From assembly GCA_051439505.1 (NCBI GenBank), contig JBFRWI010000002.1, forward strand, positions 60,924 through 92,923: a stretch of DNA of 32,000 bases, in the 5' to 3' direction. A program made the position numbers and the translations under genes. Source of the DNA: Hormoscilla sp. GTDB taxonomy: Bacteria; Cyanobacteriota; Cyanobacteriia; Cyanobacteriales; Desertifilaceae. Positions 1,353 to 31,681 of this stretch are shown piece by piece (the stretch's first letter is position 1; each line of letters starts with the position of its first letter). The notes under the pieces were generated by a model. The model searched no databases, was not told the origin of the DNA, and saw only the letters and a list, made by a program, of their open reading frames with translations.

Positions 1353-2030
1353 TCAAAGGATGGGGGAACCGTTGGGGCGAGTAATGGCAGAAGCATCGAA
1401 GTCGTCATCGTCAAATTCTCCCACTACATTTACTCGTTCTCCGCGCCTCAAATTGAGGGATTGATTATCGGGTAAATCCGCATCAACGCGAACACGACCA
1501 TTGCGAGTCCGCAGCAAAAACTCATCGTTATCCACCATCCGAATAACCCGACCGGAGATAGTAGTTGCCGTTCCCGGTGCATCTGTCGTCGGAACTATGG
1601 GAGAACCGTCCGGGCGAGTAACGGCAGAAGCATCGAAGTCGCCATCGTCAAATTCTCCCACTACATTCACCCGTTCTCCGCGCCTCAAATTGAAGGATTG
1701 GTTATCGGGTAAATCCGCATCAACGAGAACTCGACCATTGCTAGTCCGCAGCAAAAACTCATCGTTATCCACCATCCGGATAACCTGACCGGAGATAGTA
1801 TTTGCCGGTGCCGGTGTATCTGTGGAAATTATGGGGGAACCGTCCGGGCGAGTAATGGCAGAAGCATCGAAGTCGCCATCGTCAAATTCTCCCACTACAT
1901 TCACCCGTTCTCCTGGTTGCAGGTTGAGAGATTGGGAATCTGGTAAATCCGCATCCACCAGAATGGGACCATTATTGGTCTGAAGCAAAAACTCATCGTT
2001 ATTCACTATCCGGATAACCTGACCGGAGAT
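1353..2030. repeat. In-frame tandem DNA repeat, three units of 234-237 bp
   Basis: The anchor string gggcgagtaa(t/c)ggcagaagcatcgaagtcg(t/c)catcgtcaaattctcccactacatt recurs at 1375, 1612 and 1846. Units are near-identical at DNA level. Confidence 0.9.
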
Positions 2031-2384
2031 GGTGCTTGTGGAAAAAGTCCTGTTTCCTGGAGAAGTTAAAGGATCGCTTGTCCGATAGATCTCGCCGGTT
2101 AGACTCTCCCCTGTCACCGGATCTAAAATCATCGAACCGTCCGGTCTCGCGATCGATCGGGTATCGATTTCCCCTTTGTCAAATTCATCTACCAACACGC
2201 TGACAGATTCGCCGACTGTTAAATCCAACCCTGAAGCACGAATAGGTGAAGGATCTACAATGGCACTGCCGCCACCAAAATTGAGGACAAAATCCTCTCC
2301 ATCCTCCGTGAAACCACCGACGATTCCTGTGATGATGGCTCCTGGTTGAACTCCCACTGTGGGAAATGGATTTGGGTCAATCAT
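1353..2384 (-). CDS. Four-domain bacterial OB-fold (BOF/YgiW-like) repeat protein, no signal peptide
   Basis: 343-aa ORF with one degenerate and three near-identical ~78-aa units (ISGQVIRMVDNDEFLLRT.NGRV.VDADLPDNQS.NLRRGERVNVVGEFDDGDFDASA.TRPDGSPI). The unit pattern (x-DEFLLRD-xG-I-VD ... V-V-GE-D-D-FD) resembles the YgiW/YdeI OB-fold family. Antisense ORFs are translations of the same repeats. Confidence 0.7.
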   Translation of the reverse strand: MIDPNPFPTVGVQPGAIITGIVGGFTEDGEDFVLNFGGGSAIVDPSPIRASGLDLTVGESVSVLVDEFDKGEIDTRSIARPDGSMILDPVTGESLTGEIYRTSDPLTSPGNRTFSTSTISGQVIRIVNNDEFLLQTNNGPILVDADLPDSQSLNLQPGERVNVVGEFDDGDFDASAITRPDGSPIISTDTPAPANTISGQVIRMVDNDEFLLRTSNGRVLVDADLPDNQSFNLRRGERVNVVGEFDDGDFDASAVTRPDGSPIVPTTDAPGTATTISGRVIRMVDNDEFLLRTRNGRVRVDADLPDNQSLNLRRGERVNVVGEFDDDDFDASAITRPNGSPIL

Positions 2385-6922: not shown

Positions 6923-8311
<1,389 letters not shown>

Positions 8312-9384: not shown

Positions 9385-9393
9385 GAGTTGGGA

Positions 9394-9476
9394 AGTAGGG
9401 TGGGCACCGCCCACCAAATGCGCTCGGTGTTATTGATAAGTAGGGTGGGCACCGCCCACCAAGTGCGCTCGGTGTT
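9394..9476. repeat. Two 38-bp direct repeats (45-bp period), each with a GGTGGGC-ACC-GCCCACC palindrome
   Basis: agtagggtgggcaccgcccaccaa(a/g)tgcgctcggtgtt at 9394-9431 and 9439-9476. Confidence 0.9.
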
Positions 9477-12369: not shown

Positions 12370-13428
12370 TCAGCGTTTGCTGTGGTTGCGTATGGATTTA
12401 TGGATCTTCTTCCACTTTTCCTTTTCCACTAAAGCAGCGTTCTTGTCTTGGCGATCTCCCAGATGCTTCAACTCTTTTTGCAGCTTTTTATAGCTCAAAA
12501 AGCGCTTGAGTTCCAGCATTCCCTCCTGGATAGCTTCTTGGACTGCACATCCGGGTTCGCGATCGTGCTGACAATCCCGAAAACGACATGCTTGGGCCAG
12601 GGTTTCGATATCCGCAAAGGTATCTTCCAACCCAACATCTTGGGCCCAAATTTGGATTTCCCGCATTCCCGGCGTATCGATCAGCAAACCACCCGATGGT
12701 AACTTTATCAATTCCCGATGGGTTGTCGTATGGCGTCCCCGATCGTCCCCTTTTCTCACTCCTTGCACCTTTTGCAGCATTTTCCCGGTTAATTGATTGG
12801 CGATCGTGGACTTTCCGACCCCCGAAGACCCCAGCAATGCTACGGTCTGTCCCGGTTGCAGGTAAGAAAGCAGTCCATCCAATCCTTGTTGGTTAACTGC
12901 GCTTAAGGTAATTATCGGCACCAGAGGGGCGATCGCCTCTACTGCCAGTATCCGTTCGTCAACATCTGAGCACAAATCAGCCTTATTCAAAATAATGACA
13001 GGATTAGCGCCACTTTCCCAAGTTAGAATCAGATAGCGTTCGATCCTCCTGAGATTAAAATCCCCATCCAATCCCGACAGCAAAAAGACAGTGTCAATGT
13101 TCGTCGCCACAATTTGCGCTGCTGTTTTCGCACCCGCCGTTTTCCGACTAAATTTGCTTTGGCGGGGCAAAACATCATGGATGGTTGCCGTTTTTTCCTC
13201 TGGGACATTAATAACGACCCAATCTCCTACCGCTGGCAAATCCTCCTGACCGGATGCTTGGTATCGCAGTTTCCCAGTCACCTTTGCCGACAGTTCTCCA
13301 AACTCACTGTAGACAATGTAACTGTTTTTGTGTTCCCGGGCAACTCTCGCCGCCGCGTATCCTGCTTGTTGGTAGCTTTCAAAACTTGCGGCAAAAAAAC
13401 TTTTCCAACCTAATTCCTCTAGGTTCAT
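12370..13428 (-). CDS. rsgA: Ribosome small-subunit-dependent GTPase A
   Basis: Circularly permuted GTPase motifs (NKADL ... [14 protein letters not shown] ... DTPGMRE) and C-terminal zinc knuckle [17 protein letters not shown] at 13428 with gagga 8 nt upstream is preferred over the GTG at 13470. Confidence 0.93.
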
Positions 13429-13604: not shown

Positions 13605-14870
13605 TCATCCCCATTTATACGCATATCCATCTCTTCTGAAGATAGGTTTTAGGTCTATTGGCTTGACTGACTTCTGGGTTTTGTCAGGTTTGGTCAACAT
13701 AAAACTACCGCGACTTCTGGGAGTAATTCTACCTATTCCATGAACTTTATGCTTGGCAATATCGCCAGTTTGCCATCCCTTGATGGGCTTTAATGGATTG
13801 TGACGGATTGGATATCCGTACTTGTTAAGAGCAGCTTTTTGACGACCTCCACGCCCCTTGCAAGTAATGAGTAGTGGCCGAGTAGTTGCGATTTTTAACA
13901 TGGGTGTACTTCTTCCCACACAAGCTGCATCGAGCCAATGAGTTTTGGGCAATCCTTGAAGAGTTCGGTTGTATTTTGTCAAACCACCCGTGCCAGTTTC
14001 AATGGCTAATCCAGTTTCCTTAAGGCGGTTAAACAATGCCCATCGGGTAGAGTTGACTGCCGCTGCATCTTTTAGGGGGGCTTTTGCTTGCGCTAGCAAC
14101 CGCTTCAAAACTTCCGGCTTCTTTTTTAGGAATTGCTCGACAGCAGAGGCTGCTTTTTTCTGGTTGCATTTATGGCAAGCGATAGCCAGATTGCTAACTC
14201 GGTCGGAACCTCCCTTACTCTTGGGATGAATGTGTTCGATTTCTAACGGGACTTCTTTGGCACCGCAGTAGGCACACTGGTGTCGCCATTTGGTCAAGAG
14301 ATATTCCCTCAACTCGTATCCAAACAAGACTCCATGCTGGTACTCAACCCCTGATATCTCAGGGTTTTGCAGCTTTTGTGTGTCAAACCGCACTAGCTCC
14401 ATTGAGATGTCCGTTATCGGGCAATACTTCCGCAGGCGCTTGACCCAGGTCATGACAGTTTCAACTCGATGTTGCAGGCTGGGAGCTAGCCATCCAAGGG
14501 GGCGCTTCCTGTTATTGAATCTCCCAGGACGATAACGAGTCTTACGGTTACGACGATTGCGACGAACAGCGCGACGGTCTGCTAACTTTTTCTTGATCGA
14601 GTCGCCTCTGTGAGTCAATTCCGCTGCCCATACAACTGTACCAGTCTTCTCATTCACTAGCACAATACCAGTCACTTTAGCTCCTGGGTCTAACTTAATC
14701 CGATGAGGTTCTAAGCCTGGATCTTCAACAGTTCTTCTGAGGATAATCGTAAACGGATAGGTTCTGAAAACCGCAGCCTTGCCCTGCTTTAAGAGCTTTC
14801 GCGCCCTGGCAGGGTGAATAGGATTGAGCCGCTGCTTGTTGGCATCTAAAACGAAAACACAATTTTGCAT
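13605..14870 (-). CDS. iscB: IscB, OMEGA-type RNA-guided endonuclease (split RuvC with inserted HNH)
   Basis: 421 aa. PLMP-like N-terminus VFVLDANKQRLNPIHPARARKLLKQGKAAV. RuvC-I IKLDPGAKVTGIV (Asp61). Arg-rich bridge helix RRAVRRNRRNRKTRYRPGRFNNRKRPLGWLAPS. RuvC-II ISMELVRFD. HNH CAYCG..LEIEHIHPKSKGGSDRVSNLAIACHKCN. RuvC-III THWLDAACVG. Confidence 0.9.
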   Translation of the reverse strand: MQNCVFVLDANKQRLNPIHPARARKLLKQGKAAVFRTYPFTIILRRTVEDPGLEPHRIKLDPGAKVTGIVLVNEKTGTVVWAAELTHRGDSIKKKLADRRAVRRNRRNRKTRYRPGRFNNRKRPLGWLAPSLQHRVETVMTWVKRLRKYCPITDISMELVRFDTQKLQNPEISGVEYQHGVLFGYELREYLLTKWRHQCAYCGAKEVPLEIEHIHPKSKGGSDRVSNLAIACHKCNQKKAASAVEQFLKKKPEVLKRLLAQAKAPLKDAAAVNSTRWALFNRLKETGLAIETGTGGLTKYNRTLQGLPKTHWLDAACVGRSTPMLKIATTRPLLITCKGRGGRQKAALNKYGYPIRHNPLKPIKGWQTGDIAKHKVHGIGRITPRSRGSFMLTKPDKTQKSVKPIDLKPIFRRDGYAYKWG

Positions 14871-15191
14871 TTAAGCAACTCCCAAAAAAGGGGTAAAGTT
14901 TGCCTCGGTCATGTTAAGGGTGCTTTTTACATCTAACTCACGCGGTCCTACAAAATCCATTCGTTCCGTTCCTTAAAGCTAGACGACAGAGCTACGAGCT
15001 GGCGCTCACCCGTAGGTATCATGACTCCCCTAACGTAGGTCTGATCCTGGACCTGCATCTTGCATCTTCCCGAGGGAGATAATTCCAACAAAGGTCAGAA
15101 ATTACCGGATTTTATGCAAGAGCTACCGACTCAGACATATTCTTTCTCCTGTTTTTACTTCAACGCTAACGCAACGCTAAATTTTAGCTAT
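14871..15191 (-). ncRNA. Candidate IscB omega-RNA (HEARO-type) 5' leader
   Basis: No ORF of 60 aa or more on either strand across 14871-15417. It lies directly 5' of iscB, where omega-RNAs are encoded. A near-consensus promoter sits at its 5' edge. Local stems include atcttcc-cga-ggGagat at 15064-15080. The 5' boundary and the fold were not determined. Confidence 0.55.
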
Positions 15192-16208: not shown

Positions 16209-17399
16209 TTAGGCAGATCTTGACTGAGAGAGGCGTTTTACTTCTTCACCTCCTAGCAACTGATGCGCCTCTTCTAGTAAAGCAGGGATTTTGTCTCCAT
16301 GGGGACTATTCGCCAGACATTCGCGCAAGTCCATTTCCCGAACCCGCGAGGCATTATTTCCCGGAAACCAGTGACCTGCGTTACCCAGCAGATTATAGCG
16401 CCCTTTGGCATAGTCAATCATGTCGTAGGCCAGGGCGAGATTCCTCAACCACAGGATAACGGGAATATTGATGTTACCAGGCGTGTGATCGCACTCGGGT
16501 AATCCCACATGCCAGGTTTTCACCCAATCTTCCCCCAGAGTAGTAATTGCCTCCCGTTCCAACCGCCCTAAAATCGGCGGCAATATCTCTCCCGCCCGGT
16601 CTAATAGGGGCAAAACCTGCAAGTGTTCGTCAAAATCCGTCGGTCGTGCCACCCCCACACTGAGAGTATGTACCTGCTTGTGAGAAAGACAAAACAGGTC
16701 ATTAAACTGCATCGGAAGAAGGGGTTTACATAACTCTAGCAACTTGGGCGGCGGATCGTAAAGTTTCCCCCCCTTATCGGAAGGACTGATGATGAAAACA
16801 CCCAGATCGTGACGTTGCGCAGCTTCTATAGCAGGCCAGTTAACTTGATTGATGTAGTACCAGTGGAGATTCACGTAGTCAAACTGGTCGGTTTCAATAG
16901 TTTTGACAATGATGTCCGTCGGACCGTGAGTCGAGAAGCCAATAAACCGCACCTTGCCTTCCTCTTGCAGCTTCCGGGCCACCTCCAGACAGCCACCCTC
17001 TCGGATACTCTCGTGCAGCAACTCCGCCGTATTGATACCTTGCAGGGAGAGCAAATCAACATGGTCCAGCTTCAGGAAAGCCAGGGACTGCTCGAAATCA
17101 CGCCGAAACTCGACAGTGTCTGACCGGGGACTAATCTTGGTCTGGACAATTATCTGTTCGCGAGGAAACTGGGGCAAAAGCTGGCCTAGTTGCATCTCCG
17201 ATGTGCCATAGATCCTAGCCGTTTCAAAGTGATTGATGCCGACTTCTAAAGACCGACGAATATTTGCTTCCAGATTGCACTGGTTCTCCTCTGGAATCGA
17301 AGATATTAGCACATCCTCCCACTTATATTGATAGCGCATGCCACCGCAGGAGAATACTGGCATAAGTAGTTCTGTGCGCCCAAATCGTCTGTATTCCAT
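16209..17399 (-). CDS. Aldo/keto reductase family oxidoreductase (paralog 1)
   Basis: 396 aa. (Y)RRFGRT.L..PVFS.GGMR N-terminus and AKR-like core (INH.ETAR.YGTSE, VDLLSL.GIN). Highly similar to 17522-18703. Confidence 0.85.
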
Positions 17400-17521: not shown

Positions 17522-18703
17522 TTACGACTGAGAAAGGCGTTTTACTTCTTCACCTCCTAGCAACTGATGGGCCTCTTCTAGTAAAGCAGGGATTTTGTCC
17601 CCGTGGGGACTATTCGCCAAACATTCGCGCAAGTCCAGTTGCCTCACCCGCGAAGCCTGATTTCCCGGAAACCAGTGACCTCCGTTACCCAGCAGGTTAT
17701 AGCGCTTTTTGGCATAGTCAATCATGTCGTAGGCCAGGGCGAGATTTCTCAACCACAGGATAATGGGAATATTTATGTTATCAGGCGTCCGATCGTACTC
17801 GGGTAATCCGACATGCCAGGTTTTCACCCAATCTTCCTCCAGAGTAGTAATTGCCTCCTGTTCCAATCGCCCTAAAATCGGCGGCAATATCTCCTCCGCC
17901 CGGTCTAACAGGGGTAAAACCTCCAAATGTTCGTCAAAATCTGTGGGTCGCGCCGCCCCCAAACTGAGAGTATGTACCTGCTTGTGAGAAAGACAAAACA
18001 GGTCATTAAACTGCATCGGACTAAGGGGTTTACAGAGTTCTACCAACTTGGGCGGCGGCGCGTAAAGTTTGCCCCCCTTATCGGACGGACTGATGATAAA
18101 AACACCCATATCCTGGCGTTCCGCAGCTTCGATCGCAGGCCAGTTAACTTGATTGATGTAGTACCAGTGCAGATTCACGTAGTCAAACTGGCCAGTCTCA
18201 ATAGTTTTGACAATAATGTCTGTCGGACCGTGAGTCGAGAAACCAATAAACCGCACCTTGCCTTCGGTTTGCAGCTTGCGGGCCACATCCAGACAGCCAC
18301 CCGGTCGGATACTGTCGTGCAGCAACTCATCAGTATTGATACCGTGTAGGGACAGCAAATCGACATAGTCCAGCTTCAGGAAAGCCAGGGACTGCTCAAA
18401 CAGACGCAGAAACTCGACTGTGTCTGACTTGGGATAAACCTTGGTCTGGACAATCAGCTGTTCGCGAGGAAACTGGGGCAGAATCTTGCCCAGCTGCATC
18501 TCCGAGGTGCCATAGTCCCTAGCCGTTTCTATGTGATTGATGCCGACTTCCACAGACCGGCGAATAGTCGCTTCCAGATTGCGCTGGTTGTCCTGGGGAA
18601 TCTCCGATGCTGGCAGATCCTGCCACTTGTATTGATAGCGCATACCGCCGCAGGAGAATACTGGTATTTGCAATTGAGTGCGCCCAAATCGTCTGTATTG
18701 CAT
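17522..18703 (-). CDS. Aldo/keto reductase family oxidoreductase (paralog 2)
   Basis: 393 aa, collinear with 16209-17399 along its full length with scattered substitutions. Confidence 0.85.
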   Translation of the reverse strand: MQYRRFGRTQLQIPVFSCGGMRYQYKWQDLPASEIPQDNQRNLEATIRRSVEVGINHIETARDYGTSEMQLGKILPQFPREQLIVQTKVYPKSDTVEFLRLFEQSLAFLKLDYVDLLSLHGINTDELLHDSIRPGGCLDVARKLQTEGKVRFIGFSTHGPTDIIVKTIETGQFDYVNLHWYYINQVNWPAIEAAERQDMGVFIISPSDKGGKLYAPPPKLVELCKPLSPMQFNDLFCLSHKQVHTLSLGAARPTDFDEHLEVLPLLDRAEEILPPILGRLEQEAITTLEEDWVKTWHVGLPEYDRTPDNINIPIILWLRNLALAYDMIDYAKKRYNLLGNGGHWFPGNQASRVRQLDLRECLANSPHGDKIPALLEEAHQLLGGEEVKRLSQS

Positions 18704-20790: not shown

Positions 20791-21001
20791 ACTTAAAACT
20801 CCCTTAAATCTCCCGATCTAACCTGTTGCCTAGGGTTATAGTTTGCTATAATTTCACCCCGTGGCAATTGTCAGTTTACTATCTCTTGTCCCTTGACAGA
20901 CATGATTTTATATTTTCTCATGCCTGTCAAGCCATGACTATATTGTAATATTGTATTACGCTAAGGGCATCCGAAAATTAACAGGCGGAGTTAGCAAAAA
21001 T

Positions 21002-22822
21002 ATGAATAAACCCGTGATCGTCTGTATCGATGATGAACCGACAGTACTGGATAGTCTCACAATAGAACTAAATAAATACATAGGAGAGCAATGTCTGATT
21101 GAAACAGCGGAAAGCGGCGACGAAGCCTTAGAGTTATTGACAGAGTTGCTAGCGGAGGAGTATGAAGTTGCTTTAGTCATGTCTGATTATATCATGCCCG
21201 AGATGAAAGGAGATGAAGTCTTAAAGCGCATCCATGAAATATCGCCGAACAGCCTGAAAATAATGCTGACAGGGCAAGCAGATATCGAAGCAGTCGGTAA
21301 TGCCATTAAGTATGCTAAGTTATATCGTTACATAGCCAAGCCTTGGCAGCCAGAAGACTTAAAATTGACGGTCAGAGAAGCGGTAAATAGCTATGTGCGG
21401 GATAAACAACTGGCTTCCCAAAATGTTCAACTTCAGCAAATGAATCAGAAACTGGAACAATTAAACCAAGAACAAGCGGCACTAATTACCAAACTACATG
21501 AAAAGGAGAGTCGGTTGAGACAGTTCTTAGAAGCGATGCCAGTGGGTGTGGGAGTGCTGGATGTTAATGGTAAACCCTACTACATCAATCAGAGGGCAAA
21601 GGAGTTATTTGGCAAAGGAGTAGTGCCAGATACAACTATGGAACAATTGTCAGAGGTATATCAAGTTTATCAAGCAGGCACAAAGGAGCAGTACCCGTCG
21701 GAAAAGTTGCCGATCGTGCGGGCTTTGCAGGGGGAAACTGTCACATCTGACGATCTGGAAATTCACCAAGGAGATAAGATTATTCCTGTAGAAATTTGGG
21801 CAACTCCTATCTATGACGAGGCGGGCAACATTGTCTATGGTATTAATGCTATTCAAGATATCACGGAACGCCAAGAAGCGGAAGCCGATCGGCAAAAGTT
21901 TATTGAAGACTTATTTGAAGTTAATTGTAATTTGGAACTGGCCCTGCAAGCGGAATCGGAGTTAACTACTGCTGCCGATCGCTTCGTCCCTGATGAGTTT
22001 ATCTCTTTTCTGGGACGTGAAAGCATTGTCGATGTCCAATTAGGCGATAATGTCCAGCAGGAGATGTCGGTACTATTTTCCGATATTCGTGACTTTACTA
22101 CCCTGAGTGAAAGCATGACACCTTCGGACAGTTTCAAATTGATCAATGCCTATCTCTCGCGCATGGAACCGGCGATTAACGAAAATAATGGATTTATCGA
22201 TAAATACATTGGCGATGCAATTATGGCATTATTTAGCGGCGGGGCAGATGATGCCGTTAAAGCCGCGATCGCCATGCTGAACATCCTGAGGGAATATAAT
22301 ACTACTAGGCAAAGGCCGGAACGACCACCGCTCTCGATCGGAATTGGCATCAATACAGGTGATTTAATGCTGGGTGTAGTGGGGGGAAAATCCCGCATGG
22401 ATAGCACGGTGATTGGTGATACTGTTAATTTAGCATCTCGTGTGGAAAGCATGACGAAAAAATATCCGGTGTCCTTGTTAATCACCCATCATACTTTCTG
22501 GGGGTTGAAAAATTCCAGCGAATATAATCTGCGGATAATAGATAAGGTCAAGGTGAAGGGGAAATCAGAATTGGTGACTATATATGAGGTGTTTGATGCG
22601 GATGCGGAAAAAATCAAAGAAGGAAAGTTAACTACAAAAACAGCATTTGAACAAGCTGTGGTGCTATATAATATGAAGGCTTTCACTGAGGCGGCCCAAT
22701 TGTTTGCAGATTGTCTGGGCCAAAACCCAGAGGATAAAGTACCTCACATCTATCTGGAACGCTGTCAACAGAAATTGAATAATAGGGATTGGGGGGGGAC
22801 TGGTGAATTCAGCAGTCAGTAG
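21002..22822 (+). CDS. Response-regulator receiver / PAS / class III adenylate (guanylate) cyclase fusion protein
   Basis: REC domain (VIVCIDDEP...VMSDYIMPEMKG...KPW), coiled coil, PAS (LEAMPVGVGVLD...IQDITERQ). Cyclase motifs FSDIRDFTTLSE, KYIGDAIMALF, GINTGDLMLGVVGG and IGDTVNLASRVES. ATG 21002 is preferred over the TTG at 20951. Confidence 0.88.
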   Translation: MNKPVIVCIDDEPTVLDSLTIELNKYIGEQCLIETAESGDEALELLTELLAEEYEVALVMSDYIMPEMKGDEVLKRIHEISPNSLKIMLTGQADIEAVGNAIKYAKLYRYIAKPWQPEDLKLTVREAVNSYVRDKQLASQNVQLQQMNQKLEQLNQEQAALITKLHEKESRLRQFLEAMPVGVGVLDVNGKPYYINQRAKELFGKGVVPDTTMEQLSEVYQVYQAGTKEQYPSEKLPIVRALQGETVTSDDLEIHQGDKIIPVEIWATPIYDEAGNIVYGINAIQDITERQEAEADRQKFIEDLFEVNCNLELALQAESELTTAADRFVPDEFISFLGRESIVDVQLGDNVQQEMSVLFSDIRDFTTLSESMTPSDSFKLINAYLSRMEPAINENNGFIDKYIGDAIMALFSGGADDAVKAAIAMLNILREYNTTRQRPERPPLSIGIGINTGDLMLGVVGGKSRMDSTVIGDTVNLASRVESMTKKYPVSLLITHHTFWGLKNSSEYNLRIIDKVKVKGKSELVTIYEVFDADAEKIKEGKLTTKTAFEQAVVLYNMKAFTEAAQLFADCLGQNPEDKVPHIYLERCQQKLNNRDWGGTGEFSSQ

Positions 22823-22830
22823 TCAGTTGG

Positions 22831-22850
22831 TAGGGTGGGCATTGCCCACC
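22831..22850. repeat. GGTGGGC-N3-GCCCACC palindromic element
   Basis: tagggtgggcattgcccacc, flanked by AGTCAGT heptamers (22811-22826) and an aacaattaaca array (22865-22898). Confidence 0.85.
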
Positions 22851-22898
22851 ATGTCAGTGGGTAGTGGTAAAATAACAATTAACAACTAACAATTAACA

Positions 22899-23690
22899 AT
22901 GAAAATGCCTTACCTAGCCCGAATTTTAATTTACCCGATTAAAGCTTTGGATGGAGTTGCTGTCAAGCAAGCAAAGGTAATGACTGGCGGGGCGCTAGAA
23001 CATGACCGAGAATTTGCTATGTTTGACGCTCGCAACAGGTTTGTCAATGCCAAGCGCAATGTTAAGGTTCATGAACTGAGGACTAAATTTGATGGCTCAT
23101 TTGAAAAGGTGGCAATTCAGGCAGGGGAAGCAGAACATGTTTTTCATCTGCATCGGGAACGCAGTCAGATGGAAACATGGTTGAGTGAATACTTGGGTTT
23201 GTCAGTCCATTTGCAGCAAAACTCACAGCAGGGCTTTCCAGATGATACTGAGGCTTTTGGCCCGACGGTAATTAGTACGGAGACGATCGCCCAAGTAGCA
23301 TCTTGGTTTCCGGGAGTGGGCGTCGAAGAGATGCGATCGCGCCTGCGGGCCAATATAGAAATAGAGGGGGTGCCAGCATTTTGGGAAGACCGGTTGTTTG
23401 CTGCCGACAGTAATGCTAGCATATGGTTTAAGATCTCAGATGTGTTACTCGAAGGAGTAAATCCCTGTCAGCGTTGCGTGGTACCCACAAGAAACTCTCT
23501 GACTGGGGAAGCATACCCAGATTTCCAAAAGATATTCGCGGCCAAGCGGAAAGAAACTTTGCCGGAGTGGGTTGCAGCATCTCGCTTCAAGCATTTTTAC
23601 AGAGTGAGTGTGAACACGCGCATCCCCCGATCGGAAGCGGGTAAGATTTTACAGGTAGGCGATGAAGTGCAGATACTGGAGGTGAATTGA
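22899..23690 (+). CDS. MOSC domain-containing protein (N-terminal beta-barrel + MOSC)
   Basis: LARILIYPIKALDG is the MOSC_N signature. The C-terminal region NPCQRCVVPT carries the conserved MOSC cysteine. Confidence 0.8.
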   Translation: MKMPYLARILIYPIKALDGVAVKQAKVMTGGALEHDREFAMFDARNRFVNAKRNVKVHELRTKFDGSFEKVAIQAGEAEHVFHLHRERSQMETWLSEYLGLSVHLQQNSQQGFPDDTEAFGPTVISTETIAQVASWFPGVGVEEMRSRLRANIEIEGVPAFWEDRLFAADSNASIWFKISDVLLEGVNPCQRCVVPTRNSLTGEAYPDFQKIFAAKRKETLPEWVAASRFKHFYRVSVNTRIPRSEAGKILQVGDEVQILEVN

Positions 23691-23859
23691 GAATGGTGAA
23701 TTGAGAATGGCGTATACGCAGTGCGCGTAGCGCTATGGAAAATGGAAAATTGAGAATGGAAAATTGATTGAGGTATATTCGCGGCGATTTTCCATGCGAT
23801 CTAAAAATGAAAAATGGCATGCTATCGACGATCTGCCTGATGATAGAATAATAATTGCA

Positions 23860-23957: not shown

Positions 23958-25352
23958 ATGACAAATACGCGCAAAGAAACGGACAGCATGGGGGAAATAG
24001 AAGTCCCCGCCGATCGCTATTGGGGGGCCCAAACCCAGCGATCGCTAAAATATTTCTCGATCGGGCAAGACAAGATCCCGGCAGAAGTAATTGCGGCCTT
24101 CGGGATTCTGAAAAAAGCGGCAGCCCTCAGCAATGCAGAATTGGGTAAACTACCAGAAGAGAAAGCTAAACTGATCGTGCAGGCGGCATCGGAAGTAATT
24201 GATGGTAAGCTGGATGGTAACTTCCCGTTGCATGTCTGGATGACGGGTAGCGGCACCCAATGTAACATGAATGTGAATGAAGTGATCTCGAATCGGGCGA
24301 TCGAACTGGCGGGGGGAGTAATGGGAAGTAAGAACCCCATTCATCCCAACGATCACGTGAATATGTCTCAATCTTCCAACGATACTTTCCCAACGGCGAT
24401 GCATATTGCTGTCGCAGTGGCATGCGATCGGCGATTGATTCCGAAGGTGAAAAAGATGCGGGACGCCCTGCAACAAAAGTCGGAAGAATTTGCCGAGATT
24501 GTCAAGATCGGTCGCACCCATCTCCAGGATGCCGTACCTCTGACTTTGGGACAGGAATTCTCCGGTTATGTAGCCCAACTGGATGCTGCTTTGCTGCGGA
24601 TCGATCGGGTATTGCCGGAACTCTACGAACTGGCGATCGGGGGAACGGCGGTGGGCACGGGATTGAATGCGACCAAGGGGTTCGCTGCCACTGCTGTCAA
24701 GCACATTAGCAATATTACCGGATTACCCTTTACCGAAGCCCCCAATAAGTTTGCTGCGATCGCGGCCCATGATGCGATCGTGATGGCCAGCGGATCCTTG
24801 CGGACTCTCGCTGGTGCTTTAATGAAAATTGCCTCCGACATTCGCTTTTTAGCAAGTGGTCCTCGTTGCGGTTTAGGTGAACTGATCTTACCAGAAAACG
24901 AACCCGGTTCTTCGATCATGCCGGGCAAAGTAAACCCCACCCAATGCGAAGCGATGACAATGGTAGCAGCACAAATCATGGGCTATGATACCGCAGTGGC
25001 GATCGCGGGTTCGTCAGGACATTTCGAGTTAAACACCTATAAACCCATGATGGTGTTTAACGTCATTCAATCCATCAATCTGATCGCGGACAGCTGCAAC
25101 AACTTCACGGATTTTCTGCTAGCGGGACTAAAGCCGAATCGGAAGAAAATCGAGTATTATTTAGAACAGTCATTGATGCTAGTGACGGCATTAAGTCCGA
25201 CCATTGGCTATGACAAAGCTGCCCAAGTGGCGCACTTCGCCCTGGAAAAAGACATGACCTTAAAGCAAGCTTGTCTGGAATTGGGGTATGTTTCGGAAAC
25301 GGAGTTCGATCGGATTGTCGTGCCTAGCAAAATGGCCCATCCAGAAATGTAA
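23958..25352 (+). CDS. fumC: Class II fumarate hydratase
   Basis: [16 protein letters not shown] signature, [14 protein letters not shown] and [16 protein letters not shown] at 23958 (the track's GTG at 23952 is also possible). Confidence 0.96.
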
Positions 25353-25412
25353 ATGGAGAATGGAGAATGGAGAATAGAGAATTGTGCGATTTTCCATTCT
25401 CCATTCTCAATT
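25353..25412. terminator. Inverted heptamer arrays forming a long hairpin between convergent genes
   Basis: atggaga x3 + atagaga (25353-25380), spacer attgtgcgatt, then the complementary ttccat tctccat tctcaat (to ~25412). Lies between the fumC stop (25352) and the stop of 25436-25912. Confidence 0.5.
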
Positions 25413-25435
25413 AACTATTCACAATTAGTCCGGTG

Positions 25436-25912
25436 TCATTCTTGCAATTGAAAAGTGAATATTTCCTCGATCGTCATCGAATCAAACCAAGGTTGGCGGA
25501 CGCGGATAAAGTCTCCACCTTCGGGATCGAAAGACTGGATAAATTGCTTGGTTCCTGCCAGTCCGAGAGCCTTCCGAAGGGCCTCAATTCCCATTTGCCG
25601 AATCTGGGCCTGAGTCAGCTTGCTAGTATCGAGAGCCGTCTCCAACCGGTGATGTGCTAAATCCTTTTGCTTTTTGCGATCCACCTGTTCCTCTTGCTGC
25701 TCTTGCTCTTTGGCTAATTCCACAATTTCCGCCAGGGTAATATCTCCGAGCAGTTGATCCCTATCTCGGGTATAATCGCCACTGCCGTTGGAAAATTGAT
25801 GGATAAATCGCACCATACCCACCGACCCCAGAGCTTGACTTAGAGCTTCTCTTCCCGCTTCCATAATATCTTCGTGAGTTACCGGGCTAACTTCTATCAT
25901 TGCTTCTATCAT
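25436..25912 (-). CDS. Putative PIN-partner (antitoxin-like) protein with two internal repeats
   Basis: 158 aa. Repeat 1 IMEAGREALSQALGSVGMVRFIHQFSNGSGDYTRDRDQLLGDITLAEIVELAKE. Repeat 2 IRQMGIEALRKALGLAGTKQFIQSFDPEGGDFIRVRQPWFDSMTIEEIFTF. An acidic/basic linker joins them. The start (ATG 25912 or 25900) overlaps the PIN gene's 3' end. Confidence 0.6.
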   Translation of the reverse strand: MIEAMIEVSPVTHEDIMEAGREALSQALGSVGMVRFIHQFSNGSGDYTRDRDQLLGDITLAEIVELAKEQEQQEEQVDRKKQKDLAHHRLETALDTSKLTQAQIRQMGIEALRKALGLAGTKQFIQSFDPEGGDFIRVRQPWFDSMTIEEIFTFQLQE

Positions 25913-26354
25913 TGATAACCTCCTCGCTCCACCGAGCCGGGTTCTCTACTCTAACTTTTAGCATAGCGCTAGACCGAACTGCCAAACGCAACATTCTGTC
26001 ATCGGTTGTCAGCAATACGTCGGCATTGCCATTTTCGGCACAGGCGATATGTAGAGCATCAAAATATTTAAATCCTAGGCCAGCCAATTCCTGCGTTCGG
26101 GTGATTATATCATCGCTTAAGGTAACTTTATTTTTCGCTAAACCCGCCCAGAGCATCATTTGCTGTTTTCTTTCGACCGTAGGGGTCCGAGCTAACTCTA
26201 TATCAATCGCCGTGCTACCCAACAAGTGCCACTGAGCATTTCGACAACGGTCTATTATGAGTTCTACCGCCTGCGCTTCCAGACTCACCCGTTCTTGGCT
26301 CAGATCGTCAAAAGGCCGATTCAGGCAACAAATATCTAAATAGATTAAAAACAT
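25887..26354 (-). CDS. PIN-domain ribonuclease (VapC-like toxin)
   Basis: MFLIYLDICCLNRPFDD supplies the first acidic residue. FDALHIACAENGNADVLLTTDDRMLR is the typical C-terminal PIN motif. 155 aa. Confidence 0.75.
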   Translation of the reverse strand: MFLIYLDICCLNRPFDDLSQERVSLEAQAVELIIDRCRNAQWHLLGSTAIDIELARTPTVERKQQMMLWAGLAKNKVTLSDDIITRTQELAGLGFKYFDALHIACAENGNADVLLTTDDRMLRLAVRSSAMLKVRVENPARWSEEVINDRSNDRS

Positions 26355-26539
26355 AATTTTTCCTCCTTAATTGATCTTTTCATGATAACATTTTTGAGGT
26401 GGCATCGCAGATAGATAAACAATTATTTTCGCTCTCAGGGTATTTATACCCATATTTTTTGATCCTGAATGCTATAACTTGTGGCTTCACAGAAAGGTAT
26501 TGATGTTATACTAGAAATAAACCCCTAATTTTTGCACTC

Positions 26540-27118
26540 ATGGTATATTTACAATCGCCTCTGGAATTAGAACTGCAACTCACGGACGAGCAATTTTTTG
26601 AGCTTTGTCAAAAGCATCGTAATTTGAAATTTGAGCGCAATGCAACTGGAGATTTAATCATTATGTCACCAACTGGAGGAATAACTAGCGATCGCAACTC
26701 GGATATTAATTTTCAACTCAGGGCCTGGAATCGCGATCGAAAGCTGGGAAAAGTTTTTGAATCATCCGGCGGATTTAAGTTACCCAATGGGGCCGATCGC
26801 TCTCTCGATGCTTCTTGGGTGAAACTGCAACGCTGGAATGCTTTAACATTAGAACAGCAGGCCAAATTAGTACCCTTATGCCCTGATTTTGTGGTGGAAT
26901 TGCGCTCTCCTTCCGATGCCTTAAGTAAGGTGCAGCAAAAGATGAATGAATACATAGAAAATGGGGCAGAATTGGGATGGTTGATAGACCCCAAACGGCA
27001 AGTCGTGGAGGTTTATAGGCCCTCACAGGATGCGGAAGTGTTGCAGTCGCCCAAGACTGTATCGGGAGAAGCGGTACTACCGGGCTTTGTTTTGGACTTG
27101 ACGGAAATTTTCTCTTAG
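26540..27118 (+). CDS. Uma2 family (DUF820) restriction-endonuclease-fold protein
   Basis: KFERNATGDLIIMSPTGG, DASWV and CPDFVVELRSPSD match the Uma2 pattern. 192 aa. Confidence 0.8.
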   Translation: MVYLQSPLELELQLTDEQFFELCQKHRNLKFERNATGDLIIMSPTGGITSDRNSDINFQLRAWNRDRKLGKVFESSGGFKLPNGADRSLDASWVKLQRWNALTLEQQAKLVPLCPDFVVELRSPSDALSKVQQKMNEYIENGAELGWLIDPKRQVVEVYRPSQDAEVLQSPKTVSGEAVLPGFVLDLTEIFS

Positions 27119-27222: not shown

Positions 27223-27449
27223 GGGGTCTTGTCTGGACCCCTACTTGTTCCCAACCACAACGGCATGTTATGCTAAGATTAGCAGCTAAGCCATGTTCAT
27301 GTTTGCGCGACTTATATCAACAAGTTATTCTATAATTACAAGAAATTAAGGCATCGGAACCAAACGGAACCGGTGCCGAGGAGACAAACTGTACAGTACC
27401 GGTGATACCTGTATAATTCACTTACCCTTGACAAGCAATGAAGATAAAT
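27223..27449 (+). repeat. Direct repeat copy A (~227 bp) flanking the ATPase/protease cassette
   Basis: Aligns with 31447-31681 with about 8 substitutions and one 8-bp indel. It ends in ATGAAGATAAA followed by a 12-codon dead-end ORF (MKINMMLMNKSS*). Confidence 0.95.
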
Positions 27450-27512: not shown

Positions 27513-28580
27513 ATGAAAGCAGAGCTTGTTAAGAGGTTGTTTAGGGCGATCGCTAGTGGAGACCAAGAGGCGATCGACAAACTCACGTACATAGTAATTT
27601 CAGAAGAGCGTAAGAAGGGACACACATTGTTAGCCGATCAGTTAGAAAATATTACTAAGCACCAGTCAAAGTCAAATGGTTCCCAAAGGGTACCACAGAC
27701 AGAGCGATCGCTGCGGGAAAAATCGGATAAAAGCGCCTGTAGCACGACTAAACCTGCGATGGAAGAACAGGCGTTCCCGCCTATTCTACAGGATCTAAGC
27801 ACCCTGCCAACAAATAAGCGATTTGATTTTCCTCTAATTACGATCGTACCTCCAGAGAAATTACGGCATCATATGGTGCTGCCGGAGAAAATTGAGAAAC
27901 GTTTCCGGCGAATTGAACGGGAGTATGCTGCCAGAGATAGGTTAGCTCATTATGGCTTGCGCTACAGACAAAAAATTCTTTTGTACGGTCCTCCGGGCTG
28001 TGGTAAAACCTTAGGAGCTGAACGTTTAGCTTGGCACACCGGTTTACCGATGGTCAAGGTGCGATTTGATGCCATAGTGTCGTCTTTTTTGGGGGAGACG
28101 GCAAGTAATTTGAGCGTCGTGTTTGAAAAAGTGGACAAGATGGACTGCTTGTTGTTTCTGGATGAATGTGACTCCCTGGCTAAGTCACGGTCAGACCCCC
28201 AGGAAGTTGGTGAAATTAAGCGTGTGGTGAATACTTTTCTGCAACTACTTGACGATTACTCCCCATCTTCTGGTATGATAGTGGCAGCCACTAACCTCAA
28301 CGAGTCCCTCGATCGGGCTCTGTGGAGGCGATTTGATGATTTAATTGAAGTGCCACTACCGGGAGAGCAAGAACTGCGGTTGATTTTGTCAGAAAAATTC
28401 TCGACAGTGGAAGTAGGTGCGATCGACTGGTCGCGGATAATTGCGCAAATGAGTGGCTTCTCTGCTGCTCAAGCAGAAAAAGTAGCTCAAGATGCCGCGA
28501 AACGCGCTATTCTAGATCGAGAAGAACTCGTAATTCAGCCACATCTAGAAGAGGCGATCGCCGAAATCAAGGTTGTTTAG
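27513..28580 (+). CDS. AAA+ ATPase (IetA-like)
   Basis: Walker A LLYGPPGCGKT, Walker B LLFLDECD, sensor-1 VAATN, arginine region LDRALWRRFD. The ~150-aa N-terminal region has no motif I recognise. Confidence 0.85.
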   Translation: MKAELVKRLFRAIASGDQEAIDKLTYIVISEERKKGHTLLADQLENITKHQSKSNGSQRVPQTERSLREKSDKSACSTTKPAMEEQAFPPILQDLSTLPTNKRFDFPLITIVPPEKLRHHMVLPEKIEKRFRRIEREYAARDRLAHYGLRYRQKILLYGPPGCGKTLGAERLAWHTGLPMVKVRFDAIVSSFLGETASNLSVVFEKVDKMDCLLFLDECDSLAKSRSDPQEVGEIKRVVNTFLQLLDDYSPSSGMIVAATNLNESLDRALWRRFDDLIEVPLPGEQELRLILSEKFSTVEVGAIDWSRIIAQMSGFSAAQAEKVAQDAAKRAILDREELVIQPHLEEAIAEIKVV

Positions 28581-28601
28581 GAAAATTCCGAGGAGAATAA
28601 A

Positions 28602-31187
28602 ATGGTTGAACGTTATGAAATGTTTCCACATATTCAGCTTAGGCAGACAGCCGAGGGCACTGCTGTATCGACCGGAGGATCGAGAAGGAAAAATTCTCGC
28701 ACAGAGTGGAATAAGAGTAACCGAGGGGAACATGGCAGTAGGCTGAAGGGTGTCGCTGACTCTATAGTTGCTGACTGGGAAAATGTCCAAGATCAACGGC
28801 AAGAAGAAGGAAAACCCCTACTTGAAGCTAGGCGTCTTACCTTACTGACAGATCCTGAATCTTTCGATCCAGATAAGCTAAAAGCTTATGGCATTGAGGT
28901 AATTTTAGAATTAGAAAATGGGTATATAATCGGAGCGTCAGCAGATTTAGAACTGACTAAGTTGCAAGAAAAGATCGAGAAATTCATCAATGATGAGCGA
29001 GGAGGAGGTAATGTTGCTGAAGTTTGGGAGCTAATTGATGGAATTAAAAGCCCGGAGTTTATTCTGTCTCCTGAATTATGGGAGCATTGGGATAAAGTTA
29101 ATGACGAACAGATATACAATATTGATGTAGGAATTGCCTGTTTAGGACTTCAATCTAAGCTTTCCGACCCTCCAGTTAGAGAACCAGATGAAAGTGATGA
29201 TAAATACGCAAAAAGACTTAAAACATGGAGCGATAAACGCGATCTACAATATCAAGAGTGGGATGAACTAGCTATGGCAAGAGAAAATGAATTGGAAGAG
29301 TTGATCTCTAATTATAACGGAAATTTACTTAGTTTAGAGGAAGATCGGATTCCAGAGTCTGCCAAGTTACCAGATAGTTTTTCCTGTCGCATACAAATTT
29401 CAGGTAAGGGGTTAAAAGACTTAGTTTATAACTTTCCCTATATTTTTGATGTCAGCAAACCCGATCAGTTTGCCGAACTCGTGCAACCGCAAGGTTTATC
29501 TGATGGTGAAGACCCCTCTTTTCAGCTAGAACCACCTGGCCCAAATGCTCCCAAGGTCTGTGTTATTGATAGTGGGATTCAGGAAAGACATCCTCTTCTG
29601 AAAGCAGCAATTGATTCAGAGAACTCACGATCTTGGTTGCCTGGAAATCAACAAACTGCTGATTATGTTGAAAATGGTGGACATGGAACCAGGGTCGCTG
29701 GGGCGGTACTTTATCCTCGGACTATACCTCGGAGTGGGAAGCAACCAGCTATTTGCTGGATTCAAAATGCGAGAGTCCTTAATGATAACTGCAAACTACC
29801 TGAAAATCTATTTCCCCCTAATATGTTGGGGGAGATTGTAGAGTTATATAAAGGAACGAGAATATTTAATCATTCTATTACCGGAGCGCTTCCATGTCGC
29901 ACCCAATACATGAGTGCTTGGGCAGCGGCGATCGATCAACTGACGTGGCAAAAGGATATTCTCTTGATTGTGGCGGCTGGTAACTTGCCTTTATACAGTA
30001 GAATTGGTCCAACCCGATTATCTATTCCAGAACATCTGGCAGCAAATCGACCTTATCCAGATTATCTTTTAAAGGCAGGGTGCCGAATTGCGAACCCGGC
30101 ACAAAGTTTCCAAGCTTTAACGGTGGGATCGATTGCTCATAATTCTTATTATGCCCGGCCTTATTCTTCAATAGCGCAGAAAGATATGCCTTCAGCCTTC
30201 TCCTGCTCGGGATTGGGAATTTGGGATACGATCAAGCCAGAAGTTGTTGAATATGGGGGCGATCTGGTAAAGGATGAGAGTGTACCACCTAACCTTACTT
30301 ACCATGAAAGCATTTGTCCTGAATTAGTGCGATCGACATTAAACGGTGGTCATGCAATTGCCTCGGACCAAGTAGGAACCTCATTTGCAGCGCCAAAAGT
30401 CAGCCATATTGCAGCTCGTCTCGCCTCTGAGTTACCTGATGAAAGTTGTCTTTTGTACCGCGCCTTAATAGTTCAGTCAGCACGCTGGCCAGAATGGACA
30501 ATGGCAGATAATGTGGATCAACTGCATGTATTGCGTCAAATAGGTTATGGTATTCCCAATATTGAACGCTGTTTAGCCAATTATTCCAATCGGATCACGA
30601 TGATTACTACAGGAGAACGCCGAATTAAAGCTCGACAAGCTCAGATTTACGAAGTAAAACTACCTAATTCATTGCGTTCTCAAGGAGATGAGTTAGAGAT
30701 TTTAGTGGAAGTTACCCTGTCATACAAAGCTCAACCCCGTCGAACCAGACGACATCGACGCAAATATCTTTCAACTTGGCTTGACTGGGATTGTAGCAAG
30801 AGAGGAGAAGACCCCGAAAGCTTTCTTTCCCGACTTTTGCAAGAACATGACGCCCCAGAAAATGCGGATCCAGGAGAAAGTATTTTCAAGTGGACCCTGG
30901 GAAAGCAAAAGAATTACGGAATAATTAAAGATGTTTCTCGGGGTGCAGGAACTATTCAGAAGGATTGGACTGTTGTCAAGTCATTTGAACTGCGAGAATC
31001 TTTCTGCATTGCAGTGGTTGGACATCAAGGTTGGAACAACGATCCGGATGCTAGCGTTCCCTATTCTCTAGTTGTTAGCTTTGAAGCGATCCAAGCTAAT
31101 GTACCAATTTATCAGGAAATATCCTCAGCTCAAGTACAGATGGAAGTTGTCGATCGGGTAGAAATTAAATCCACAGGGAGGATATGA
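28602..31187 (+). CDS. Cytoplasmic S8 (subtilisin-like) serine peptidase, 861 aa (IetS-like)
   Basis: aggaga RBS at 28591-28596. Catalytic triad in D-H-S order: VCVIDSGI, GGHGTRVAG, GTSFAAPKVSH. No signal peptide. Large uncharacterised N-terminal (~310 aa) and C-terminal (~200 aa) regions. Confidence 0.85.
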   Translation: MVERYEMFPHIQLRQTAEGTAVSTGGSRRKNSRTEWNKSNRGEHGSRLKGVADSIVADWENVQDQRQEEGKPLLEARRLTLLTDPESFDPDKLKAYGIEVILELENGYIIGASADLELTKLQEKIEKFINDERGGGNVAEVWELIDGIKSPEFILSPELWEHWDKVNDEQIYNIDVGIACLGLQSKLSDPPVREPDESDDKYAKRLKTWSDKRDLQYQEWDELAMARENELEELISNYNGNLLSLEEDRIPESAKLPDSFSCRIQISGKGLKDLVYNFPYIFDVSKPDQFAELVQPQGLSDGEDPSFQLEPPGPNAPKVCVIDSGIQERHPLLKAAIDSENSRSWLPGNQQTADYVENGGHGTRVAGAVLYPRTIPRSGKQPAICWIQNARVLNDNCKLPENLFPPNMLGEIVELYKGTRIFNHSITGALPCRTQYMSAWAAAIDQLTWQKDILLIVAAGNLPLYSRIGPTRLSIPEHLAANRPYPDYLLKAGCRIANPAQSFQALTVGSIAHNSYYARPYSSIAQKDMPSAFSCSGLGIWDTIKPEVVEYGGDLVKDESVPPNLTYHESICPELVRSTLNGGHAIASDQVGTSFAAPKVSHIAARLASELPDESCLLYRALIVQSARWPEWTMADNVDQLHVLRQIGYGIPNIERCLANYSNRITMITTGERRIKARQAQIYEVKLPNSLRSQGDELEILVEVTLSYKAQPRRTRRHRRKYLSTWLDWDCSKRGEDPESFLSRLLQEHDAPENADPGESIFKWTLGKQKNYGIIKDVSRGAGTIQKDWTVVKSFELRESFCIAVVGHQGWNNDPDASVPYSLVVSFEAIQANVPIYQEISSAQVQMEVVDRVEIKSTGRI

Positions 31188-31292: not shown

Positions 31293-31359
31293 AGAAACCG
31301 GGTTTCTCGTGATAGCAGCAACGAGAAATCAATGATTTTACCAGAGAAACCCGGTTTCT
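31293..31359. repeat. Hairpin cluster built from AGAAACC(G/C)GGTTTCT palindromes
   Basis: agaaaccgggtttct (31293-31307) and agaaacccggtttct (31345-31359) are mutual reverse complements. The inner stem is tttctcgt (31303-31310) / acgagaaa (31321-31328). Same motif as 12318-12350. Confidence 0.7.
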
Positions 31360-31446: not shown

Positions 31447-31681
31447 GGGGTCTTGCCTGGACCCAGACTTGCCCCCAACCACAACGGCATGTTATGCTAA
31501 GATTAGCAGCTAAGCCATGTTCATGTTTGCGCGACTTCTATCAACAAGTTATTCTATAATTACAAGAAATTAAGGCATCGGAACCAAACGGAACCGGTGC
31601 CGAGGAGATAAACTGTACAGTACCGGTGTCTACCTCATACCTGCATAATTCACTTACCCTTGACAAGCAATGAAGATAAAA
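31447..31681 (+). repeat. Direct repeat copy B (~235 bp), continuous with the downstream gene start
   Basis: See copy A. It contains TTGACA at 31660-31665 and the ATG at 31670. Confidence 0.95.

Follow-up and report, generated by a model that had tools for sequence, protein, structure and literature searches.

A divergent IetAS-family ATPase-protease gene pair bracketed by direct repeats on a Hormoscilla chromosome

A stretch of 32,000 nucleotides (nt) from Hormoscilla sp. (Cyanobacteriota; GCA_051439505.1, contig JBFRWI010000002.1, positions 60,924-92,923 of the forward strand), hereafter the window, carries two adjacent genes, ietA and ietS, which encode an AAA+ ATPase and a large subtilisin-like protease (Table 1). 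The pair is best explained as an IetAS-family operon, that is, a two-component toxin-antitoxin (TA) and abortive-infection module on the Hormoscilla chromosome, and we put the probability of this explanation at roughly 75%. The present analysis supplies the evidence for family membership, for intact catalytic and motor motifs, for the operon structure and domain layout, and for the conserved pairing of the two genes. A preliminary description of the same DNA had proposed two co-oriented genes 21 bp apart with an IetAS-like architecture. Both open reading frames (ORFs) were confirmed, and the proposed architecture was borne out by profile matches far better than those of generic families.

The family assignment was made with the PADLOC hidden Markov models, NCBIfam, Pfam and direct alignment to the founder proteins of plasmid pTiC58. 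IetA matched four PADLOC IetA models, the best being PDLC02196 (E=3.5e-77, residues 9-349), and the next non-Iet family was TRIP13 (1.7e-14). IetS matched eight IetS models, with PDLC02198 as the best (E=1.9e-60; residues 308-853 span profile positions 245-787 of 795), and the generic subtilase model reached only 1.2e-11. The top NCBIfam matches were IteA_antiphage (NF042959) for IetA and IteS_antiphage (NF042956) for IetS. Compared with the pTiC58 founders, IetA showed 34% identity over residues 9-353, and IetS showed 26% identity over residues 312-842, which cover the S8 and C-terminal domains. Judged from sequence, these matches and alignments mark 27513..31187 as a true but divergent member of the IetAS family. 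A standard PADLOC-type annotation would label the pair ietAS, and it belongs to a large family that is already described and is not a new kind of system.

IetS is identical to a GenBank protein labelled 'S8 family peptidase [Hormoscilla sp.]', and more than 100 full-length homologues with 65-71% identity were found in Microcoleus, Nostoc, Scytonema, Calothrix, Gloeothece and other genera. In a protein library clustered at 50% identity, 369 clusters matched IetS at E<=1e-30, and about 90 of them aligned over approximately residues 6-855 with 35-55% identity. Among the 120 IetA matches listed, all covered 98-100% of the protein and were 330-376 amino acids (aa) long. Because conservation extends over the full length, the flanking regions of IetS and the N-terminus of IetA are family features. 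By this sequence survey, the clade, in which IetS measures about 860 aa, is widespread among filamentous cyanobacteria and extends to hundreds of genomes. A search of a phage collection returned nine distant partial matches and no sign that the clade is phage-borne.

The pairing of the two genes is also conserved. All eight other cyanobacterial loci compared (Hormoscilla GUM202, where ietA is disrupted, Gloeothece, Scytonema, Microcoleus, Nostoc, Trichocoleus, Calothrix and the Synechocystis plasmid pSYLC), as well as pTiC58, had an AAA gene immediately before the S8 gene. The spacing was 24-28 nt in homologous loci with intact ietA and 3 nt in pTiC58, and the two genes overlapped by 8 nt on pSYLC. 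In the window, the short gap with its ribosome-binding site is consistent with an operon.

Table 1. Coordinates of ietA, ietS and associated features in the window (position 1 is the first nucleotide of the window)
Feature	Position	Strand	Description
Genes between fumC and ietA	25436..27118		Three genes (PIN-like ORF, 158-aa ORF and Uma2); context, not part of the system
Uma2 gene	26540..27118	+	PD-(D/E)XK-type; E=5.5e-42; weak match to PADLOC candidate family PDC-S03 (2.4e-10)
Left copy of ~230-nt direct repeat	27223..27448	+	Upstream of ietA
Promoter-like site	27390..27417	+	TGTACA-16 nt-TATAAT; inside left repeat, ~95 nt upstream of ietA; consensus match only
ietA	27513..28580	+	355 aa, ATG start; classical-clade AAA+ ATPase; PADLOC IetA, Pfam AAA
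ietA-ietS intergenic gap	28581..28601	+	21 nt, with GAGGAG Shine-Dalgarno sequence 8 nt before the ietS ATG
ietS	28602..31187	+	861 aa, ATG start; cytoplasmic S8 (subtilisin-like) serine protease; PADLOC IetS, Pfam Peptidase_S8
IetS N-terminal alpha/beta region	28602..29501	+	Residues 1-300; most variable part of IetS
IetS S8 catalytic domain	29547..30551	+	Residues 316-650
IetS C-terminal beta-rich domain	30552..31184	+	Residues 651-861; IetS profiles extend to position 787/795, pTiC58 alignment to residue 842
TLSY..PRRTRRxRRxYLSTWLDW	30714..30788	+	IetS residues 705-729; most conserved non-catalytic segment
Perfect 16-bp inverted repeat, 35-nt loop	31293-31308 / 31344-31359	+	AGAAACCGGGTTTCTC / GAGAAACCCGGTTTCT; ~100 nt downstream of ietS
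Right copy of ~230-nt direct repeat	31447..31680	+	Ends ~17 nt before the likely LarA-like start M10 (31697)

All ATPase motifs listed in the preliminary description were present: GPPGCGKT (159-166), LLFLDECD (213-220), AATN (258-261) and RRFD (272-275). The Walker A and B residues (K165 and D217/E218) were invariant among homologues, and sensor-1 N261 and R272/R273 were also present. Pfam placed an AAA domain at 155-282 (E=2e-30). An additional motif absent from the earlier list was the pore-loop-1 sequence S-S-F-L-G-E at 190-195. The pattern S-S-[F/Y]-L-G-E was invariant in 53 IetA homologues, and its counterpart in pTiC58 IetA is K-F-M-G-E. From its sequence, this loop is a hallmark of a polypeptide-translocating motor. 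The AlphaFold2 (AF2) model of IetA, with a predicted local distance difference test (pLDDT) score of 70, comprised a three-helix bundle (3-54), a disordered linker (~53-90) and one AAA+ module (~110-355), and the linker varied from 16 to 52 aa among homologues. The AAA+ module superposed on FtsH, p97-D2, proteasomal Rpt and PAN (Foldseek E~1e-14; phmmer down to 1e-49). The predicted layout of three-helix bundle, flexible linker and one AAA+ ring module is Vps4-like. The N-terminus of the ATPase had been called unique; it is in fact conserved, as indicated by the coverage of the 120 listed homologues and by the start of the PDLC02196 alignment.

IetS has the catalytic residues D323 (VIDSG), H361 (HGT) and S594 (GTSFAAP) and the oxyanion residue N461 (AAGN). 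These four residues did not vary among 54 close homologues and reached at least 95% conservation in 71 diverse representatives, and Pfam matched Peptidase_S8 at 316-650 (E=8.6e-33). No signal peptide or membrane segment was detected in IetS: residues 1-40 are hydrophilic, and no 19-residue stretch exceeds a Kyte-Doolittle value of 1.14. Thus, the intact D/H/S triad and the lack of a signal peptide agree with the preliminary description. A secreted or peptide-maturation subtilase was considered and rejected, given the hydrophilic N-terminus, the lack of a membrane segment and the lack of a linked precursor or exporter gene in the contexts inspected.

The regions on either side of the catalytic domain had been described as unassignable. 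The isolated fragments 1-313 and 660-861 indeed gave no Pfam match at E<=1, and PDB profile searches with alignments of the N-terminal and C-terminal regions gave nothing meaningful; but both regions are conserved across the family and are not peculiar to this copy. Pfam PF27160 (Y4kK_N) was found as a weak-level precomputed label on the N-termini of many IetS homologues. Close homologues were most similar in the S8 domain (76% identity), followed by the C-terminal part (69%) and the N-terminal part (47-68%). Several longer homologues (P0004, P0005 and P0009, ~1075 aa, and P0108, 1140 aa) had an internally duplicated N-terminal module (~25-285 or ~78-245), suggesting from sequence that the N-terminal alpha/beta region is a modular unit. 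Residues 1-300 are a candidate regulatory or sensor region. In the C-terminal domain, the segment 705-729 showed 93.5% identity in close homologues and sits in a low-confidence loop of the AF2 model. PRRTR, Y722 and W729, as well as QKDW (786-789), were kept in the 71 diverse representatives (35-55% identity), and pTiC58 IetS holds part of the segment as TLSY..TRRH.Y.

Parts of the IetS model were predicted with better confidence (pLDDT ~70-85 for residues 10-290, and acceptable values for parts of 610-845). In a Foldseek search against the PDB, the model matched pro-Tk-SP (3afg, E=7e-6), Kex2 (E=1.5e-3) and furin, with template modelling (TM) scores below 0.3 for Tk-SP and Kex2. Further matches included many jelly-roll proteins, among them capsids (~180 columns, TM <0.4 on a model of pLDDT 55), and ACT-type beta-alpha-beta-beta-alpha-beta regulatory subunits (~220-260 columns); the output gave no query-residue ranges for the individual matches. 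The C-terminal domain may be jelly-roll or P-domain-like, and a kexin-like layout with N-terminal ferredoxin-like modules, an S8 core and a C-terminal beta-sandwich is tentatively proposed from the model. No self-compartmentalising protease fold was detected among these Foldseek results, and no IetA or IetS structure was detectable by sequence searches of the PDB.

The promoter-like site upstream of ietA is weak evidence, since such consensus matches are no commoner in the region than in shuffled controls. Each arm of the inverted repeat downstream of ietS is nearly palindromic on its own, and the element lacks a T-run; it may be a candidate terminator or an operator or other protein-binding site. 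The G+C content of the ietAS region (0.42-0.46) is slightly lower than that of most of the window.

A ~230-nt direct repeat stands on both sides of the ietAS pair, and its two copies share 96-98% identity, with a single indel of 8 nt. In an exact-pattern scan covering one genome per species, the repeat sequence was limited to Hormoscilla genomes. Related copies in these genomes were located upstream of ietA, downstream of ietS and after a 1.4-kb RusA-containing cassette (6949-7147, 12741-12912 and 14269-14356 in locus L001 of GUM202; 4904-5178 in L008; 672-767 and 2117-2212 in L013). A structured RNA and a tRNA-type attachment site were rejected as explanations: scanning of the window and the repeat gave no Rfam, tRNA or tmRNA match, and the RNA fold was not significant (z=-1.9). 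The repeat is read as a recombination-prone intergenic element, which does not prove a mobile cassette. The window has neither integrase nor mobilisation genes alongside the pair.

The pair was present in all five Hormoscilla genomes seen. It lies downstream of fumC also in GUM202 and in the complete chromosome OZ001293.3, and in GM7CHS1pb and SP12CHS1 it adjoins the same ~230-nt repeat together with RusA and NifU genes. These shared positions indicate that ietAS is old at the locus and not a recent arrival. An ietAS-free empty site was sought in related genomes, and every Hormoscilla locus retrieved carried ietAS, so a recent insertion is not demonstrable. The pair had been placed in a mobile-looking cassette. 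The bracketing direct repeats support that impression, but the fumC-linked locus shared with two Hormoscilla genomes and the same repeat in two more speak against it. The gene order of the window departs from that of the four other Hormoscilla genomes exactly at the right-hand repeat, beyond which lies a LarA-like nickel-pincer isomerase gene in the window versus RusA and NifU genes in the other four. On a speculative and rather unlikely reading, the Hormoscilla-specific repeats between ietAS, RusA and downstream cassettes might mark a site-specific cassette-exchange hotspot. The interval between fumC and ietA varies as well: it is occupied by an NB-ARC STAND gene plus an extra copy of ietA in GUM202, and by other genes in OZ001293.3. 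In Hormoscilla genomes, the variable region with ietAS begins at fumC, and in the window heptamer-like runs (AATGGAG / AATTGAG) at 23685-23782 and 25345-25426 flank fumC on both sides in inverted orientation.

The neighbourhood survey comprised nine contexts inspected by eye. Restriction-modification (RM), TA, STAND or CHAT genes were found near ietAS in five of the eight homologue loci. The neighbours included type I RM genes inside a Tn7-like element at one locus, an Eco57I-type RM system with CHAT and Trypco2 at another, PIN, HigBA-like and DUF87 genes in Gloeothece, and Dcm, Rpn and DUF87 on plasmid pSYLC. Across the homologue loci, no constant metabolic, housekeeping or peptide-maturation partner was found, and neither transporter nor precursor-peptide genes were present in the window or in the homologue contexts inspected. 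The preliminary description had named two results that would speak against its proposal, a mismatch with Iet profiles together with homologues not enriched in defence islands, and a consistent link to a housekeeping pathway such as peptide maturation; the profiles match, and no such partner recurs.

Around the pair, the window is an ordinary stretch of cyanobacterial chromosome with polA, phytoene desaturase and synthase, sodB, rpiA, fumC and sensor kinase genes. The PIN-like ORF upstream of ietA (E=8e-5, right at the Pfam cut-off) overlaps the 158-aa ORF on the minus strand in a TA-like arrangement, and neither of the two matched anything in PADLOC. A PIN gene is also upstream of the pair in Gloeothece. 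A functional link between PIN or TA genes and ietAS was considered and dismissed as coincidence, given that gene order and partner differ and that PIN genes are abundant in cyanobacteria. For the LarA-like gene, read as an ORF from 31670, residue 14 is the first to align with NCBIfam NF052515.

The literature is the source for assigning toxin and antitoxin roles, for abortive infection as the phenotype and for a phage protein as the trigger. IetAS came to notice on pTiC58 as a TA system that stabilises the plasmid, with IetS as the toxin and IetA as the antitoxin (PMC13069673; PMC5006074), and the homologue SgiTA (S026/S025) stabilises Salmonella Genomic Island 1 (SGI1; PMC5006074). Toxicity of IetS and its neutralisation by IetA are on record only for homologues from pTiC58, SGI1 and ietHAS (PMC13069673; PMC5006074). 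IetAS homologues protect against phage in E. coli and B. subtilis (PMC13069673; bioRxiv 10.1101/2022.08.27.505566). The protease is essential for phage defence, the catalytic serine of characterised IetS homologues is required for it, and constructs with mutated ietA were unobtainable (PMC13069673). In B. cereus, ietAS acts by abortive infection and becomes toxic once the SPbeta gene yosG is expressed (bioRxiv 10.1101/2022.08.27.505566). The earlier statement that both trigger and substrate are unknown thus needs amendment for the trigger, but holds for the substrate, which, like the anti-phage mechanism, was still called unknown in 2026 (PMC13069673). A literature search for a mechanistic paper on IetAS found none.

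How IetA restrains IetS, which domain senses phage, and whether the pair is active in Hormoscilla are points that we infer. An IetA hexamer would use ATP to hold or remodel IetS in an inactive state, with the PRRTR loop, basic and invariant, or the variable alpha/beta modules of the N-terminus as candidate contact sites on IetS. If a phage protein intervened or the locus were lost, this control would be upset, and the freed IetS would cleave essential cellular proteins, leading to growth arrest and aborted infection. Such an addictive locus would resist deletion by recombination between the flanking repeats. A more specific scheme joins these elements: the N-terminal modules would be an uncleaved, pro-domain-like region that is both autoinhibitory and phage-sensing, the Vps4-like unfoldase IetA would grip PRRTR or the N-modules, and interference by phage would release the protease. 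We consider this combined scheme speculative and rather unlikely to be right in full.

Several points weigh against reading the pair as a TA and abortive-infection module. The NCBIfam equivalog cut-offs were missed by a wide margin (221.8 vs 510 bits for IetA and 118.2 vs 900 bits for IetS); the pair therefore represents a divergent subfamily, and its function has to be extrapolated from relatives that share 25-35% of residues. The N-terminal ~300 aa of IetS, although similar in length to the founder region (~290 aa), gave an hhalign probability of 0.45% (E=0.13) against it. The overall IetS model is poor, with a pLDDT of 55 and a catalytic core below 50, so the domain-fold assignments are tentative. 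Three of the eight homologue contexts are plain housekeeping (tkt and prk), and a literature search gave no experiment on any cyanobacterial IetAS member. Finally, the high ratio of nonsynonymous to synonymous substitution rates (dN/dS) of ietS and the disrupted ietA of GUM202 allow for relaxed selection in this symbiont lineage.

These last two observations bear on a rival reading, in which a symbiont genome restricted to its host has kept the pair as a decaying remnant without function. Within Hormoscilla, the dN/dS of ietS was 0.48 (0.58 in the N-terminal part, 0.43 in S8 and 0.33 in the C-terminal part) versus 0.11 for fumC. In GUM202, ietA is duplicated (L001 7216-8115 and 9078-9961), and both copies have a 199-nt frameshifting deletion, corresponding to window positions 27666-27864, that removes the linker and severs the coding part of the N-terminal helix bundle from that of the AAA+ part. 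Moreover, the best IetS match from OZ001293.3 has just 719 aa. The GUM202 disruption may reflect either decay or an artefact in a metagenome-assembled genome. However, both ORFs in the window are full length, none of the catalytic, motor or family-wide conserved residues has been lost, and the dN/dS of ietA (0.10-0.19) shows purifying selection. IetS thus evolves faster than IetA, which would also be expected of a toxin or sensor in an arms race. A remnant is accordingly quite improbable. A still smaller likelihood, close to negligible, is assigned to a housekeeping ATP-dependent protease in which IetA feeds unfolded substrates to IetS, as in the PAN-proteasome or FtsH. The nearest structural and sequence relatives of IetA are protease-coupled unfoldases and IetA keeps a canonical pore loop, but the distribution is patchy, the positions are variable, some copies are plasmid-borne, and the Foldseek matches of IetS offer no self-compartmentalising fold. 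In addition, the tested IetS homologues are toxic without IetA, the opposite of an obligate unfoldase-dependent protease (PMC13069673, PMC5006074).

The pair could also be mainly an addiction module that stabilises a genomic island by post-segregational killing, with no real phage defence in Hormoscilla. The discovery of IetAS and SgiTA as stabilising modules (PMC13069673, PMC5006074) fits this idea, as does the occurrence of IetS-like genes on 493 plasmids, 325 of which are conjugative. Recombination between the flanking repeats could delete the pair, yet it has been kept in all five Hormoscilla genomes. However, addiction and defence are not mutually exclusive, homologues protect E. coli and B. 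subtilis against phage, and cyanobacterial copies adjoin RM and other defence genes. We therefore regard a role confined to addiction as unlikely, if better founded than a remnant or a housekeeping protease, and favour the combined TA and abortive-infection module.

Other parts of the window contain several further elements. An IscB RNA-guided endonuclease gene lies at 13605-14870 on the minus strand (NCBIfam NF040563, 478.5 bits vs a cut-off of 175), and directly upstream on the same strand is a HEARO/omega-RNA at 14893-15063 (Rfam RF02033, 74.7 bits, E=3.3e-15; gathering score 83). By their matches, the two form an OMEGA-type element of the IS200/IS605 family. A response-regulator/PAS/adenylate-guanylate-cyclase protein encoded at 20951-22822 (+) matched PADLOC PycC (Pycsar cyclase) up to 3.8e-22; with no effector gene next to it, the match probably reflects cyclase-domain homology of a generic kind. 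Within the ORF 1353..2384 (-), three tandem ~227-nt units with 78-92% identity were found at 1360-2057, and the gene encodes BOF/OB-fold, DUF1905 and DUF5666-like repeats. Tandem paralogous aldo/keto-reductase-like genes are located at 16209-17399 and 17522-18703 (-), and their 3' ends, at the lower coordinates, share 300 nt with 92% identity. Additionally, a short stem-loop element, GGGTGGGCACCGCCCACC, occurs in three intergenic copies (9388-9476 and 22823-22866) with a pattern like that of repetitive extragenic palindromes.

In Hormoscilla, a sponge symbiont, ietAS would serve for defence or addiction and has been retained at a variable site downstream from fumC. The features new here are the Hormoscilla-only ~230-nt repeat that brackets the pair, the faster evolution of IetS relative to IetA, and the family-wide PRRTR…YLSTWLDW motif. 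The clade offers mechanistic handles, namely a variable or duplicated IetS N-terminus, an invariant basic C-terminal loop and a translocating pore loop in the 'antitoxin'. By itself, the Hormoscilla copy adds little and makes the questions about the family no more tractable than other members do.

Among known systems, pTiC58 IetAS agrees with the pair in gene content, gene order and orientation, and its IetA is similar over the full length, including the N-terminal helical domain and the pore loop (K/S-F/Y-hydrophobic-G-E). It differs in the N-terminal ~300 aa of IetS, which are not detectably similar, and the Hormoscilla copy is chromosomal and resides in a cyanobacterial host. SgiTA stabilises a chromosomally integrated island, which parallels the chromosomal, repeat-flanked position of the Hormoscilla pair; however, SGI1 is a defined integrative mobilisable element, whereas the Hormoscilla pair lacks integrase and mobilisation genes. 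The ietHAS system (Liu-DS4; PMC13069673) is built on the same IetA-IetS core with an essential protease, but it needs the SNF2 helicase gene ietH. In Hormoscilla, the flanking genes are Uma2 and the LarA-like isomerase and ietH is lacking; the pair is therefore of the canonical two-gene form.

At the level of the proteins, IetS resembles Tk-SP, Kex2 and furin in the succession of an N-terminal alpha/beta region, an S8 core and a C-terminal beta-rich domain, a likeness based on weak matches of a low-confidence model. Unlike IetS, which is cytoplasmic and has a ~300-aa N-terminal region, these proteases are secreted or belong to the secretory pathway and have a cleaved propeptide of ~80 aa. IetA shares the Walker A and B motifs, sensor-1, R272/R273 and the aromatic-hydrophobic-Gly pore loop with FtsH, the D2 domain of p97/Cdc48, PAN/Rpt and Vps4, and it additionally resembles Vps4 in its small helical N-domain and flexible linker. 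In contrast to classical AAA+ unfoldases, IetA has one AAA+ module and no fused protease, and in genetic terms it is the antitoxin to a separate protease, not its activator.

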